Of a stretch of DNA of 64,000 bases, positions 10,312 to 21,023 are shown piece after piece. How positions within the stretch are numbered: position 1 is the first letter of the stretch; the number at the start of each line of letters is the position of its first letter. Both the position numbers and the translations under genes were made by a program. The stretch lies in assembly GCA_041650935.1 (NCBI GenBank), contig JBAZKH010000004.1, forward strand, positions 69,040 to 133,039, written 5' to 3'. The notes beneath the pieces were generated by a model. It was given only the letters and a program-made list of their open reading frames with translations, did no database searches and had not been told where the DNA came from. Origin of the DNA: Candidatus Omnitrophota bacterium (GTDB taxonomy: Bacteria > Omnitrophota > Gorgyraeia > 2-01-FULL-45-10).

Positions 10312-10686
10312 ATGCATCTTACCAAAAAGGGTTTTACGCTGATAGAACTAATAATAGTAGTCATAATAGTCGGTATACTTGCGGCAATAGCGGGACCTAT
10401 GATGAGCGGCAACGTGAAAAAAGCAAAGAGGACAGAAGCGATTGCGGCATGCGGCGCTATAAGAACCGCCGCCAGGTTATATATGGCCGAGAATAATAAC
10501 ACTGTGCCTACAAACTTGGCGGACGTAGTGCCTTCTTATTTGACTACTTCGGATTTGACCGGGCAATATTATGGGTCTAGTAATTATACTATATCAGGCG
10601 GATTAGTCAAAGCCGACGTTGGTACCGCCGGCGCCGGATGGGTGAATCTGAATATAGACACCAGCGGGATTTTGAAACAAGGATAA
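10312..10686 (+). CDS. Type IV pilin / pseudopilin, copy 1 (prepilin N-methylation signal KKG|FTLIELIIVV)
   Basis: It has a class III signal peptide with Gly at -1 and Glu at +5. There is a Ser/Thr/Tyr-rich C-terminal half. A strong RBS AAGGAGGG is upstream. Confidence 0.8.
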   Translation: MHLTKKGFTLIELIIVVIIVGILAAIAGPMMSGNVKKAKRTEAIAACGAIRTAARLYMAENNNTVPTNLADVVPSYLTTSDLTGQYYGSSNYTISGGLVKADVGTAGAGWVNLNIDTSGILKQG

Positions 10687-10711
10687 AGCCGGTCCATAGC
10701 TTTTTTAAAAT

Positions 10712-10744
10712 AGAGGCAAGATTTTTCTTGCCTCTATTTATTTT
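10712..10744 (+). terminator. Rho-independent terminator after pilin copy 1 (AGAGGCAAG-ATTTTTC-CTTGCCTCT followed by a T-run)
   Basis: It is a perfect 9-bp stem followed by TATTTATTTT. Confidence 0.7.
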
Positions 10745-10779
10745 ATGTACTATTATTATAGTAGAAAGCGAGGGGTATA

Positions 10780-11172
10780 ATGATGAGGATAGCGGCGATG
10801 TTTTGCACTAGGCGCGCTTTTACGCTGATAGAACTAATAATAGTAGTCATAATAGTCGGTATACTTGCGGCAATAGCGGGACCTATGATGAGCGGCAACG
10901 TGAAAAAAGCAAAGAGGACAGAAGCGATTGCGGCATGCGGCGCTATAAGAACCGCCGCCAGGTTATATATGGCCGAGAATAATAACACTGTGCCTACAAA
11001 CTTGGCGGACGTAGTGCCTTCTTATTTGACTACTTCGGATTTGACCGGGCAATATTATGGGTCTAGTAATTATACTATATCAGGCGGATTAGTCAAAGCC
11101 GACGTTGGTACCGCCGGCGCCGGATGGGTGAATCTGAATATAGACACCAGCGGGATTTTGAAACAAGGATAA
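10780..11172 (+). CDS. Type IV pilin, copy 2. The mature region is identical to copy 1, but the leader differs (…RRA|FTLIEL, Ala at -1)
   Basis: The segment 10817-11230 is identical to 10332-10745. The N-terminal 18 codons differ. Confidence 0.7.
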   Translation: MMRIAAMFCTRRAFTLIELIIVVIIVGILAAIAGPMMSGNVKKAKRTEAIAACGAIRTAARLYMAENNNTVPTNLADVVPSYLTTSDLTGQYYGSSNYTISGGLVKADVGTAGAGWVNLNIDTSGILKQG

Positions 11173-11196
11173 AGCCGGTCCATAGCTTTTTTAAAA

Positions 11197-11229
11197 TAGA
11201 GGCAAGATTTTTCTTGCCTCTATTTATTT
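11197..11229 (+). terminator. Rho-independent terminator after pilin copy 2 (duplicate of 10712-10744)
   Basis: It lies inside the duplicated block. Confidence 0.7.
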
Positions 11230-18096: not shown

Positions 18097-18112
18097 AACA
18101 AGGACCGGCTAA

Positions 18113-18826
18113 ATGAAGCTTACCGCTGAACAAAAGAGTATTCGCCGCAGAATAATCGAAATAAGTTACGAAAAGCGCCTCTCTCACCTTGGGTCATGCC
18201 TGAGCGTTATAGACATAATCTCCGCGGTCTACCGGGTTAAGCGCGCGGACGAACGGTTTATCCTGTCGAATGGCCACGCAGGCATCGCCCTATATGCTAT
18301 TTTGGAAAAACACGGTTTTCTGCATCCTGCCGATATGAAAAAGCTCTCCGTGCATCCGGACAGGAACCCGGATATCGGTATCGATGTGTCGGCGGGAAGC
18401 CTGGGGCAAGGTCTGCCGATAGCCATCGGGATGGCATTGGCCGAAAGGCGGAAGAATGTTTATTGTGTAATCTCGGACGGTGAATGTTCCGAGGGGAGCA
18501 TATGGGAATCCCTGAGAATTGGATTGGAGAAGAAGATCGGTAATCTCAAGGTTATTATTAACGCGAATGGATGGGGCGCATATGACGCTATCTCCGCCTC
18601 TTTACTGATAAACAGGATCAGGGGTTTTGGTTACAAGGCCAAGTCTGCGGACGGGCATGATGTCAAAGGTTTGGAGCGATTATTAAAAACTAAGTCTGCC
18701 GACAGCCCTTTAGTCGTTTTTGCCGAGACAACGGTCGAGCAATTACCATTTTTAAAAGGGCAGGATGCTCATTATCATGTAATGACTGCGGCGGATTTCG
18801 AACTGGCTAAGGAAGTATTTGAATGA
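18113..18826 (+). CDS. Transketolase, N-terminal (ThDP-binding) subunit
   Basis: It contains LSHLGSCLS...ILSNGHAG and a GDG-type ThDP motif SDGECSEGS. Confidence 0.75.
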   Translation: MKLTAEQKSIRRRIIEISYEKRLSHLGSCLSVIDIISAVYRVKRADERFILSNGHAGIALYAILEKHGFLHPADMKKLSVHPDRNPDIGIDVSAGSLGQGLPIAIGMALAERRKNVYCVISDGECSEGSIWESLRIGLEKKIGNLKVIINANGWGAYDAISASLLINRIRGFGYKAKSADGHDVKGLERLLKTKSADSPLVVFAETTVEQLPFLKGQDAHYHVMTAADFELAKEVFE

Positions 18827-19326
18827 GACAGAGAATGTCCGATATAAAGATGCGAAGGCTGTTTGCCGATATCCTGCACGAACGGATGCGTGTCGATAAA
18901 AGGATATGGGTCATTGCGGGGGATGTGGGCTATAAGATGTGGGACCGGGTAAGGATGGATTACCCGGATAGATTTATAAATGCCGGCGCGGCAGAACAGC
19001 TTATGGTCGGCATGGGGGTCGGCCTGGCGTTGGAAGGCAAGATCCCGTTTGTCTATTCCATAACGCCTTTTTTATTATATAGGCCTTTCGAAACCATCCG
19101 TAACTATGTTAACAGGGAGAAGGCGCCGGTTAAACTGATCGGTTCCGGCAGGGGCAGGGATTACTTTGCCGACGGCTTTTCTCATTGGGCGGAAGAGGAT
19201 AAATCAGCGATGAAGCTTTTTCCTAATATAAGAGCGAGATGGCCGCAGACGAACGCGGAGATCCCCGCTATCGTGGACGAAATTATAACTAATGATGTCC
19301 CATATTATGTCAATCTCAAAAAATAA
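18823..19326 (+). CDS. Transketolase C-terminal-section (pyrimidine-binding domain) subunit, short form
   Basis: It is 167 aa. It overlaps the upstream gene in an ATGA arrangement, and has Pyr-domain-like EQLMVGMGVGLALEG. Confidence 0.65.
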   Translation: MRQRMSDIKMRRLFADILHERMRVDKRIWVIAGDVGYKMWDRVRMDYPDRFINAGAAEQLMVGMGVGLALEGKIPFVYSITPFLLYRPFETIRNYVNREKAPVKLIGSGRGRDYFADGFSHWAEEDKSAMKLFPNIRARWPQTNAEIPAIVDEIITNDVPYYVNLKK

Positions 19327-19348
19327 TGTTTAATTGGAAAGGTATGCT

Positions 19349-20290
19349 ATGAAGAAGATTTCCGCCGTTATCGCCTGCTATAAGGACGAGCAGGCTATCC
19401 CGCATATGTATAAACGCCTGACGGATACTTTCAACAAAATGCAGGTTGATTATGAAATAATATTCGTGAATGACGGAAGCCCCGACAACACGGAACGCGT
19501 GCTTTCGGACCTTGCGGATAAGGACAGCCATGTTATAGCGGTAAACCATTCCCGCAACTTCAGCTCACAGATGGCTTTCACAAGCGGCATGGATATAGCG
19601 ACGGGTGATGCGGTTGTACTGCTTGACGGCGACTTGCAGGACCCGCCGGAAATGATCGAGGCGATGTATGGCAAATGGCGCGAAGGATACGACATAGTTT
19701 ACGGGATACGCGCAAAGAGGGAGGCTCCTCTTCTTATGCAGGCCGCGTATAAAATTTTTTACAGGATATTTCACGCGCTGTCGTATGTGAAAATCCCGCT
19801 GGATGCCGGAGATTTCTCGCTGATAGACAAAAAAGTGGTCGAGCATTTGAAACAATTCCCGGAACGTGACAGATTTTTAAGGGGATTGCGTGCATGGGTC
19901 GGTTTCCGGCAAACAGGTATTCCGTATTTAAGGGCGGAAAGAGCGTTTGGCAGGACCACCAACAATTTTTTTAAAAATTTCAACTGGGCCACAAAAGGGA
20001 TATTCTCGTTTTCTTATATTCCTCTTGAGATTATTACGATGCTTTCGTTTGTCACATTTTTAATAGCCATTGCCGGAATGATTGCGCAGATAATTCTAAG
20101 GATCCTTATGCCGGCGACTCCGCATGGGATTACGACCATACTGGTTGTGGTATTATTCGTCGGAGCGATCCAACTGCTTTCGCTGAGCATATTGGGCCAG
20201 TATATAGGTAAAATATTCGAAGAGGTCAAGCAGAGGCCGAAGTATATCGTAAAGAGCATCTATAGGAAAGGGCGGGATGCTGAACAATAA
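19349..20290 (+). CDS. GT2 polyprenyl-phosphate sugar synthase (ArnC/DPM1/GtrB-like) with C-terminal TM helices
   Basis: It has VNDGSPDNT and a DGDLQDPPE (DxD) motif. There are two C-terminal TM helices. Confidence 0.8.
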   Translation: MKKISAVIACYKDEQAIPHMYKRLTDTFNKMQVDYEIIFVNDGSPDNTERVLSDLADKDSHVIAVNHSRNFSSQMAFTSGMDIATGDAVVLLDGDLQDPPEMIEAMYGKWREGYDIVYGIRAKREAPLLMQAAYKIFYRIFHALSYVKIPLDAGDFSLIDKKVVEHLKQFPERDRFLRGLRAWVGFRQTGIPYLRAERAFGRTTNNFFKNFNWATKGIFSFSYIPLEIITMLSFVTFLIAIAGMIAQIILRILMPATPHGITTILVVVLFVGAIQLLSLSILGQYIGKIFEEVKQRPKYIVKSIYRKGRDAEQ

Positions 20291-21023
20291 AAAGATAGTC
20301 GTGGTGATGCCCGCTTATAACGCGGGCAGGACGCTGAAGAAGACCTACGACGAGATCCCTAAAGATATAGTCGACGATATAATCCTGACCGACGACCATT
20401 CAAGCGACCAGACCCTGCGGATCGCCAAAGACCTGGGGCTCAAGACGTTCGTTCATGACAGTAACCGCGGATACGGCGGAAACCAGAAGACCTGTTACAA
20501 TGAAGCCCTTAAGCTCGGCGCGGATGTTGTTATTATGCTCCACCCAGACTATCAGTACCCTCCCAAACTGATAACCCCTATGGCGGCGCTCGTTACTTCA
20601 GGGATGTTCGATGTGGTGCTGGGCTCGAGGATACTCGGCAATAAGGCGCTTGCGGGCGGGATGCCGTTATATAAATACGTCGCAAACAGGGCGCTTACTC
20701 TCCTCGAGAATAACATCATAGGTGAGAAGGTGTCGGAGTACCATACCGGGTACAGGGCCTTCTCTAAAGAGGTCCTGTTGAGAGTTCCGTTTATTGAAAA
20801 CTCGGATGATTTTCTATTCGATAATCAGATCCTTCTACAGGCATTCTATTTCGGTTACAGGGTGGGGGAGATAACATCGCCGAGCCGGTATACGAAAGAG
20901 TCGTCATCGATAAATTTTCGCAGGAGCGTCGTCTATGGTTTTGGAGTTCTCGGGGCGGCGTTCCAGTACCTGCTCCAGCGGAAGGGTCTCGCCAGGTTCC
21001 GGATATTTGCCGCAATTCAATAA
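20277..21023 (+). CDS. GT2 glycosyltransferase (dolichyl/polyprenyl-phosphate hexose synthase-like, soluble)
   Basis: It contains VVMPAYNAG, TDDHSSD and HPDYQYPP. Confidence 0.75.
   Translation: MLNNKKIVVVMPAYNAGRTLKKTYDEIPKDIVDDIILTDDHSSDQTLRIAKDLGLKTFVHDSNRGYGGNQKTCYNEALKLGADVVIMLHPDYQYPPKLITPMAALVTSGMFDVVLGSRILGNKALAGGMPLYKYVANRALTLLENNIIGEKVSEYHTGYRAFSKEVLLRVPFIENSDDFLFDNQILLQAFYFGYRVGEITSPSRYTKESSSINFRRSVVYGFGVLGAAFQYLLQRKGLARFRIFAAIQ

Follow-up and report, generated by a model that had tools for sequence, protein, structure and literature searches.

A 64-kb window of the genome of a Candidatus Omnitrophota bacterium, by which we mean the whole stretch of DNA analysed (contig JBAZKH010000004.1, positions 69,040 to 133,039), contains an operon of membrane-protein, glycosyltransferase and sugar-modifying genes behind two type IV pilin genes. 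We are confident that this operon codes for a glycosylation module of polyprenyl-phosphate-sugar synthases and glycosyltransferases of the GT-C class. With distinctly more reserve, we favour its interpretation as a type IV pilus-linked, TfpW-like periplasmic glycosylation system of the three-component type, with the pilin as the likely acceptor. The genes are named by their start coordinates in the window, and the three large membrane proteins encoded by 11254, 12683 and 15302 consist of 480, 554 and 623 amino acids (aa), respectively. The homologues of 12683 are referred to as the 554 family and those of 15302 as the 623 family, while L-numbers designate the contigs or loci used for comparison. 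The open reading frames (ORFs) for the pilins, the membrane proteins, the two glycosyltransferases of family 2 (GT2) and the sugar-modifying enzymes were confirmed at the coordinates given below, all of them on the + strand. Because the genes from 11254 to 21023, a compact run counted as ten genes on the 3' side of the pilins, either overlap or are separated by gaps of at most 17 nt, we regard them as an operon. Domains were assigned using the Pfam and NCBIfam models, and structural searches were performed with AlphaFold2 (AF2) models using Foldseek against the PDB.

The first-pass annotation of this DNA had described three large polytopic proteins encoded 3' of a duplicated pilin gene, and all three were indeed found there and are polytopic. 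None of them matches the Pfam models for TPR, YfhO or Wzy_C domains, and each has hundreds of homologues, all of which are unannotated. The gene 12683 (12683..14347) codes for a protein without any Pfam match at E ≤ 10 or NCBIfam match at E ≤ 1, including those for PMT, PMT_2 and ArnT, and its product is identical (100%) to the database protein with the locus tag WC522_05895. Searching with its AF2 model, which was built on a family alignment (pLDDT 92.4, pTM 0.92), yielded GT-C proteins as all of the 19 best matches, with E-values from 1e-5 to 3e-2, probabilities of 0.98–1.0 and TM-scores of about 0.45–0.55. The best of these were STT3A (1e-5) and ArnT (5ezm, 1.6e-5), accompanied by STT3B, ALG12, ALG9, AftA, PglB, DPY19, AftB, Pmt4 and EmbB, whereas transporters ranked only beneath the GT-Cs with TM-scores near 0.1. 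The product of 15302 (15302..17173, starting with GTG), which also lacks a Pfam or NCBIfam model, was modelled with a pLDDT of 89.8 and a pTM of 0.90, and its 11 best matches were again all GT-C proteins, namely AftA (3e-5), PglB (6e-5), STT3B, ArnT, DPY19 and EmbA, with probabilities of up to 1.0. Based on these models, we assign GT-C folds to both proteins with high confidence, rather than the transporter or Wzy-like folds which the first-pass annotation had named as the competing outcome.

In the first external loop of 12683, the first-pass annotation had noted a motif of the ArnT/PMT style, LWNDESETAMYAKRI, which corresponds to residues 33–47 of the product. Three residues of this loop, W35, D37 and E38, which follow the helix at residues 2–26 of the model, are invariant in 36 homologues. 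Because this invariance persists at sequence identities of 36–64%, the motif is no chance match. The resemblance to ArnT and PMT holds with respect to the GT-C fold and the acidic motif, but not with respect to family membership, as the respective models are not matched. In the first loop of 15302, neither an Asp nor a Glu is invariant, and EKNG stands in place of the ERDG of the family consensus; the invariant residues D198 and D278 are located in later loops. The soluble C-terminal domain of 12683 (13950-14347, residues ~425-536) contains the motifs YxGPLDF, IATNYEE and YYLG and has more than 20 invariant positions across phyla at 36–64% identity; it may bind a conserved ligand or contribute to the active site. 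For 15302, the public gene call starts 68 codons later and predicts a protein of 555 aa; the homologues, however, cover all 623 aa beginning at the GTG codon, with a conserved N-terminus (15302-15505), and the start in the database looks too short. An ORF of 91 codons at 15268-15543 was rejected as an out-of-frame overlap of this conserved N-terminus.

The linkage to the pilin is carried by the third membrane protein, 11254 (11254..12696), whose gene starts 82 nt behind the second pilin copy and overlaps with 12683 by 14 nt. Its hydropathy profile indicates a first transmembrane (TM) helix at residues 1–29, a loop of 50 aa (30–79), a bundle of TM helices (80–353) and a soluble C-terminal tail of 127 aa (354–480), with the first loop presumably facing the periplasm. 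This layout of a first helix, an acidic first loop, a helix bundle and a C-terminal domain mirrors that of 12683. Among 63 sequences with identities down to 29%, D34 is invariant and D33 nearly so, both located 4–5 residues past the first helix, and R127, R132, E245 and R297 are further invariant charged residues of the family. Scanning these 63 diverse members against Pfam revealed only two isolated fusions, one to a TPR domain and one to DUF4019. A profile search with the family yielded 612 representatives, the best 150 of which were all full-length family members without any bridge to a known family. Alignments of the 11254, 12683 and 15302 families by hhalign gave no significant relationship (probabilities below 4%), a result which carries no weight for 11254 because the two families with GT-C folds miss each other as well.

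The genomic surroundings of the 11254 homologues revealed a recurrent association with pilins. Prepilin genes were present within 1.5 kb in 12 of 22 close homologues (at least 43% identity, on metagenome contigs), mostly as the immediate neighbour in the same orientation. Up to a distance of 1.5 kb from the homologues, pilin genes reached a density of 3.8 per 10 kb, about 15-fold higher than the 0.26 per 10 kb on the more distant parts of these contigs, and the adjoining pilins belong to several different sequence types. The contigs L087, L090, L091, L094 and L100 contain no related genes other than those for the pilin and the 11254 homologue, while genes for PilB and PilC precede the pair in L088, L089, L093, L095, L107 and L108, and a GT2 gene follows directly behind the 11254 homologue in L089, L110 and L141. 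The homologue in L087 is a second paralogue in the metagenome-assembled genome (MAG) to which L001 belongs; it is surrounded by housekeeping genes and overlaps with a pilin gene homologous to that of the window. The product of 11254 is probably a GT-C-type pilin glycosyltransferase with a putative GT-C fold. Because it directly follows the pilin genes, as tfpW follows pilA, and its homologues are repeatedly found beside prepilin genes, it is the best candidate for attaching the first sugar to the pilin.

The proposed glycan acceptor is encoded by two gene copies. The first one (10312..10686) codes for a prepilin of 124 aa with the canonical leader MHLTKKG/FTLIEL, containing Gly at position -1, and a mature part of 117 aa; it matches PF07963 (N_methyl, E 1.9e-7) and the N-terminal region of TIGR01710 (GspG, E 1.5e-11). 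The second one (10780..11172; PF07963, E 6e-7) codes for the same mature part behind a leader with Ala at position -1 (RRA/FTLIEL). Both copies are part of a perfect tandem repeat of 414 bp (10332-10745 and 11231 as the end of its second unit, which begins at 10818), containing the pilin gene and its terminator, and only the leaders differ. The duplication could be a very recent event or an artefact of assembly; the closest relative, L001, contains a single pilin gene. Each copy is followed by an intrinsic terminator hairpin with a 14-bp stem, located at 10708..10739 for the first copy (5 GC pairs and a T-tail) and at 11194..11225, within the duplicated unit, for the second. The mature pilin contains the YLTTSDLTGQYYGSSNYTISGG stretch, on which the first-pass annotation had based its description as rich in Ser, Thr and Tyr, as well as two N-x-S/T sequons, the O-type linkage of a glycan being only putative. 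Its 18 Ser and Thr residues account for only 15% of the mature protein, rising to 22% in the C-terminal 64 residues, which is enriched but not extreme.

The remaining genes of the operon code for enzymes that fit the synthesis and tailoring of lipid-linked sugar donors, and their identities agree with those proposed initially. It should be noted that the NCBIfam matches of all these enzymes are below the curated cut-offs and indicate similarity at the family level only. The gene 19334 (19334..20290; PF00535, E 1e-25) codes for a GT2 enzyme of the GtrB/ArnC/PgfS type of polyprenyl-phosphate sugar synthases, which contains a hydrophobic region at residues 225–292 with two C-terminal TM helices. 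Its best NCBIfam match is PgfS (E 7e-75, 252 bits vs. a cut-off of 500), followed by ArnC (E 8e-49, 166 vs. 529 bits). The second GT2 gene (20277..21023; PF00535, E 2e-18) codes for a further candidate polyprenyl-phosphate sugar synthase of the DPM1/AglJ/PpgS type, matching the NCBIfam models for Dol-P-hexose transferase (1e-16), AglJ (9e-16) and PpgS (3e-13). An NAD-dependent sugar epimerase/dehydratase of the short-chain dehydrogenase/reductase (SDR) family is encoded at 14340..15296 (PF01370, E 9e-51; LegB, RmlB and GalE at about 1e-37, below cut-offs) and a class I S-adenosylmethionine-dependent methyltransferase at 17170..18096 (PF13489, E 2e-18; PF08241, E 3e-15). A split transketolase-like enzyme is represented by a thiamine diphosphate (ThDP)-binding N-terminal half (Transketolase_N, 18113..18826; PF00456, E 3e-15; NF004559, E 3e-36, below cut-off) and a pyrimidine-binding half (Transket_pyr, 18823..19326; PF02779, E 4e-19), whose genes overlap by 4 nt. 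The transketolase C-terminal domain is absent from this pair.

The association of the module with pilus genes is conserved in relatives of the organism. Directly upstream of the pilins, the window contains genes for a PilB/GspE-type assembly ATPase with an MshEN N-domain, the pilus motor (7228..8994, + strand; PF00437 T2SSE, E 2.6e-137; PF05157 MshEN, E 1e-10), and for a PilC/GspF platform protein (8996..10219, + strand; two stretches matching PF00482 T2SSF, E 7e-57). The whole module from 11254 to the second GT2 gene is syntenic in three Omnitrophota contigs, with identities of 62–85% in L001 and L168. In L001, the order is hyp genes, PilB (74% identity), PilC, one pilin, the 11254- and 12683-like genes, SDR, methyltransferase, transketolase pair, two GT2 genes and hydrogenase, at identities of 62–84%. 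L168 starts at the 11254 homologue, which is followed by a TPR protein, the 12683-like gene, SDR, a 15302-like gene, methyltransferase, the transketolase pair and both GT2 genes. The gene 15302 is therefore a variable member of the cluster, being absent from L001 and present in L168. Wherever the upstream side is visible (L001, L088 and L089), genes for PilB and/or PilC and pilins precede the module. The linkage to pilins expected in the first-pass annotation is found in L001, but the 554 family as a whole is mostly unlinked to pilins, and the linkage is carried by 11254, which had not been singled out. We regard that initial interpretation as partly supported.

Genes of the 554 family occur in Omnitrophota, WOR-1/Saganbacteria, the Candidate Phyla Radiation (CPR), Bacteroidota, Myxococcota, Desulfobacterota, Nitrospirota and Bacillota. 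Among 80 species-level loci, the most frequent partner was an orthologue of the GT2 gene 20277 (45–61% identity), which was present at a distance of up to 10 kb in 17 loci; in 10 loci it was no more than 3 kb away, and in 8 of these it was directly adjacent. This frequent pairing identifies 20277 and 12683 as a conserved pair of donor synthase and GT-C protein which is not specific for pilins. A gtrA gene adjoins the 554-family gene in one locus from Paceibacterota. In WOR-1/Saganbacteria, the 554-family gene is located inside a pilus locus, together with genes for a YfhO-type GT-C, a methyltransferase and GT2 enzymes between the major and minor pilins. In the WOR-1 loci L002, L003 and L016 (~11650-14530), this YfhO-family GT-C of 793 aa adjoins the major pilin beside the 12683 homologue, and between the genes for PilB and PilC there are also ones for a response regulator and for a PAS histidine kinase. 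A 414-aa protein encoded next to the WOR-1 homologue proved to be unrelated to 11254. As to the 623 family, contig L170 (1-14531) contains seven consecutive large genes, six of which code for products of 592–750 aa without a Pfam domain, one of them a 15302 homologue, and the seventh for a YfhO protein; this run may be an array of GT-C-like enzymes.

In its way of working, the closest known system is that of TfpW from group IV strains of P. aeruginosa (Pa5196/PA7). This GT-C enzyme, encoded after pilA, requires a DDX motif located in its periplasmic loop 1, and its C-terminal domain is periplasmic as well. In P. indica as well as in K. denitrificans, pilA-tfpW is clustered with the genes for donor synthesis. 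The window shares with these loci a polytopic membrane protein encoded right behind the pilin, and the residues D33 and D34 of 11254 after the first TM helix match the essential Asp-Asp motif of TfpW, both proteins also possessing a C-terminal domain. TfpW uses a polyprenyl-phosphate-linked monosaccharide as its donor; a donor of this kind is predicted here, too, and candidate genes for its synthesis are part of the cluster. The gene order, with the pilin in front of the genes for GT-C enzymes and lipid-linked sugar donors, agrees with the TfpW-like logic proposed in the first-pass annotation. However, 11254 shows no detectable sequence similarity to TfpW, from which it is set apart by the traits described for TfpW and not by direct sequence comparison. 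It lacks a TPR domain, which was found as a fusion in only one distant homologue, and the Emb-type proline motif YX6PFX7P is absent from all three membrane proteins. The donor genes of the window code for GT2 enzymes, SDR, methyltransferase and transketolase, whereas the TfpW loci contain the arabinose pathway of DPPR synthase, DprE1 and DprE2, and the large membrane enzymes number three rather than one. With the TPR domain, the proline motif and the genes of the arabinose pathway all missing, an assignment to the TfpW family is not supported.

Similar considerations apply to other known systems. The three-component systems (GtrA/GtrB/GtrC, or ORF12/14/15 of Citrobacter with a GT136 enzyme) combine a GT2 polyprenyl-phosphate synthase with a GT-C enzyme at the outer face, and auxiliary epimerases diversify the sugar. 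A GT2 synthase (19334) and GT-C transferases are present here as well, and the pairing of 20277-like GT2 enzymes with the 554 family across phyla fits this scheme; the window differs in containing no flippase in the cluster, two synthases, three candidate transferases and GT-C families without a Pfam model, and the likely acceptor is a protein, the pilin, rather than an O-antigen. In the Pgf system of S. mutans (PgfS, PgfE, PgfM1 and PgfM2), PgfM1 and PgfM2 are GT-C enzymes with YfhO domains, and the cluster also codes for the acceptors, which are surface proteins rich in Ser and Thr. It resembles the window in the PgfS match of 19334, in the joint coding of an SDR epimerase with more than one GT-C enzyme and in acceptors, putative ones in our case, encoded at the same locus, but none of the three membrane proteins matches YfhO, the PgfS match stays below its cut-off, and Omnitrophota are not streptococci, the candidate acceptor being a type IV pilin. 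ArnT (GT83) and PMT (GT39) share the GT-C fold and an acidic motif opening the first external loop, the WNDE of 12683 resembling the DE motif of PMT, and the operon also contains an ArnC-like synthase gene. The differences are the missing family-model matches, identities of only 10–13% in the structural alignments and another C-terminal domain. An O-oligosaccharyltransferase of the PglL/TfpO type was rejected because no Wzy_C match was found and the models of 12683 and 15302 match GT-C rather than Wzy/WaaL proteins. The principle by which a GT-C transferase modifies a pilin using a sugar donor linked to a lipid phosphate is already known; new are GT-C families without a Pfam or NCBIfam model, one of them specifically associated with pilins, and an architecture with multiple GT-C enzymes and two donors in Omnitrophota.

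The assignment of the pilin as acceptor rests on gene neighbourhood, and we rate it as slightly better than even. Several observations weigh against it. The Ser/Thr richness of the pilin is moderate, no flippase gene (GtrA-like, MATE or ArnE/F) is present between 7228 and 21023, and 11254 has no match in searches against Pfam (E ≤ 10), NCBIfam (E ≤ 1) or PDB profiles. Its homologues of less than 43% identity show no enrichment of pilins, and the paralogue in the window's own MAG (L086) occupies a site syntenic to that in L087 but is followed by a gene for a signal-peptide protein, not a pilin; the pairing of 11254 and pilins is therefore frequent, but not universal. Moreover, there is a strong terminator between the pilin genes and 11254, as could be expected if the major pilin is highly expressed and read-through is attenuated, co-transcription with the operon being only putative. 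Finally, a prepilin motif was present within 10 kb in only 8 of the 80 loci of the 554 family and a PilB gene in only 6, counts on which we rejected 12683 as a pilin-specific enzyme, and the 623 family, whose genes belong to clusters of the polysaccharide type or to arrays of further large membrane proteins, was found without pilins. The sugar module, consisting of 12683, 15302, the SDR, methyltransferase and transketolase enzymes and both GT2s, may instead decorate a non-pilin periplasmic acceptor such as an envelope polysaccharide, a lipid or Ser/Thr-rich surface proteins, comparable to Pgf/PgtC2, the mycobacterial Aft/Emb enzymes or the Gtr-type modification of O-antigen, and the proximity of the pilins would then be historical or due to 11254 only. 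We take this reading seriously, while considering it rather unlikely. Apart from the terminator, it draws on the 554-family genes of Bacteroidota, Myxococcota, Desulfobacterota, Nitrospirota, CPR and Bacillota, most of which have no pilus genes nearby, on the strongly conserved C-terminal domain of 12683, which would fit a conserved ligand better than pilins of hypervariable sequence, and on the clustering of 623-family genes with those for a Wzx-like flippase, GT4 enzymes and a sulfatase or with large-membrane-protein arrays. It is contradicted by the persistence of the module together with 11254 and pilus genes in this clade over 55–85% sequence divergence, by the independent recruitment of the 554 family to pilus loci in WOR-1/Saganbacteria and some CPR, and by the window itself, in which no genes for lipopolysaccharide (LPS), lipid A or capsule synthesis were found.

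Two further explanations concern individual parts of the cluster. If 11254 were an accessory membrane protein of the pilus, involved in its assembly or stabilisation or in pilin chaperoning, the GT-C operon would be functionally separate from the pilins. This would agree with the lack of any known family matching 11254 and with its many pilin-adjacent homologues on contigs without glycosylation genes (e.g., L087, L090, L091, L094 and L100). Yet the failed searches are uninformative because they fail equally for 12683 and 15302, which are GT-C proteins by structure, and we consider an accessory function improbable in view of an architecture mirroring that of 12683, the conserved residues D33, D34, R127, R132, E245 and R297, which look like an active site, the 14-nt overlap with 12683 and the conserved linkage with the sugar module. 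The GT2 genes following some homologues (L089, L110 and L141) and the C-terminal TPR fusion of one homologue, as known from TfpW, point in the same direction. We give hardly any credence to the idea that the cluster represents an Arn-like modification of lipid A or the LPS core, with an ArnC-like GT2 and an ArnT-like GT-C enzyme located beside pilus genes by chance. While 19334 matches ArnC (E 8e-49) and 12683 has the ArnT structure (5ezm) near the top of its structural matches, the ArnC match reaches only 166 of the required 529 bits and is weaker than that to PgfS, 12683 fits GT-C structures that modify proteins and glycans equally well, no PMT or PMT_2 match was obtained, and equivalents of ArnA, ArnB, ArnD and ArnE/F are missing. 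In addition, 554-family genes are present in MAGs of CPR and Bacillota. These groups are generally taken to lack LPS, which also counts against an Arn-like function.

If the operon serves the glycosylation of the pilin, as we favour, the pathway may proceed as follows. In the cytoplasm, the SDR, the methyltransferase and the split ThDP-dependent transketolase-like pair would tailor one or more nucleotide sugars, the unusual sugar suggested in the first-pass annotation being a putative product. At the cytoplasmic face of the inner membrane, the two GT2 enzymes, judged by their families, would load single sugars onto undecaprenyl phosphate to form two lipid-linked donors, which would then be flipped by a flippase encoded outside the cluster. 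The use of polyprenyl-phosphate donors by the three membrane proteins is predicted from the presence of two synthases in the operon and from the pairing of the 554 family with GT2 enzymes. At the periplasmic face, the GT-C proteins, with modelled folds in the case of 12683 and 15302 and a presumed one in that of 11254, would transfer the sugars via acidic residues of the first external loop. Synteny suggests that 11254 would place the first sugar on the pilin, and that 12683, together with 20277, and 15302 would probably lengthen or decorate the glycan, or also act on other acceptors. Finally, the modified pilin would be assembled by PilB and PilC. As a more speculative extension, which we put forward tentatively, 11254 may be the founding member of a GT-C family which has not been described before and is devoted to the pilins of type IV pili, occurring beside several pilin types on metagenome contigs of uncultured bacteria including Omnitrophota MAGs. 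In this clade, up to three GT-C enzymes without family models might then build the glycan stepwise in the periplasm, using two lipid-phosphate donors, one of whose sugars would be tailored by the ThDP-dependent transketolase-like enzyme and the methyltransferase.

The pilus and glycosylation genes are wedged as a block between the hydrogenase maturation genes hypF, hypD and hypE (3395-7173, + strand), upstream of the pilus genes, and those of a membrane-bound group 4 NiFe hydrogenase of the Mbh/Mrp-like type (21081-~32000), of which genes for Fe-S, NADH-dehydrogenase-like and NiFe subunits follow 3' of the operon from 21081 onward (+ strand). The same wedged arrangement between hydrogenase genes is present in L001. 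The block has a GC content of 0.43–0.47, compared to 0.50–0.53, and a T-rich coding strand, which may reflect only its content of membrane proteins. No further genes for prepilins or the pilus machinery were found elsewhere in the window. Further downstream, an ORF at 37804-39081 gave full-length matches to the Pfam models Hexokinase_1 (E 3e-58) and Hexokinase_2 (E 9e-72), and two ORFs at 39078-40568 (496 aa) and 43284-44633 (449 aa) had no Pfam match at E ≤ 1e-5. The region 45647-50027 codes for an AMP-binding enzyme resembling acyl- or aryl-CoA ligases, followed by a membrane O-acyltransferase of the MBOAT family and a 322-aa protein without a Pfam match, and resembles the DltB/AlgI type of module for the acylation of surface polymers. 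The 3' part of the window has a low GC content (0.38–0.44) and contains genes for an AAA ATPase with a DUF4143 domain and two toxin-antitoxin pairs of the AbiEi/AbiEii type (55261-60642), which may represent a mobile or defence island.

The Omnitrophota consist mainly of ultra-small bacteria that have not been cultured. A survey of the phylum stresses their type IV pili, which are thought to attach the cells to a host or prey, and glycosylation is not mentioned there. In P. aeruginosa, pilin glycans are reported to protect the cells from pilus-specific phages. If the pili of the organism studied here are glycosylated, this would bear on the interactions of these cells with both hosts and phages. 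The two families that model confidently as GT-C proteins without any sequence match in Pfam, NCBIfam or the PDB, together with 11254 as a third candidate, are targets for structural and enzymatic work. Should the proposed role of 11254 prove true, its pathway would represent a multi-enzyme, stepwise glycosylation of pilins in the periplasm, unlike the single-enzyme systems of TfpW, TfpO and PglL.

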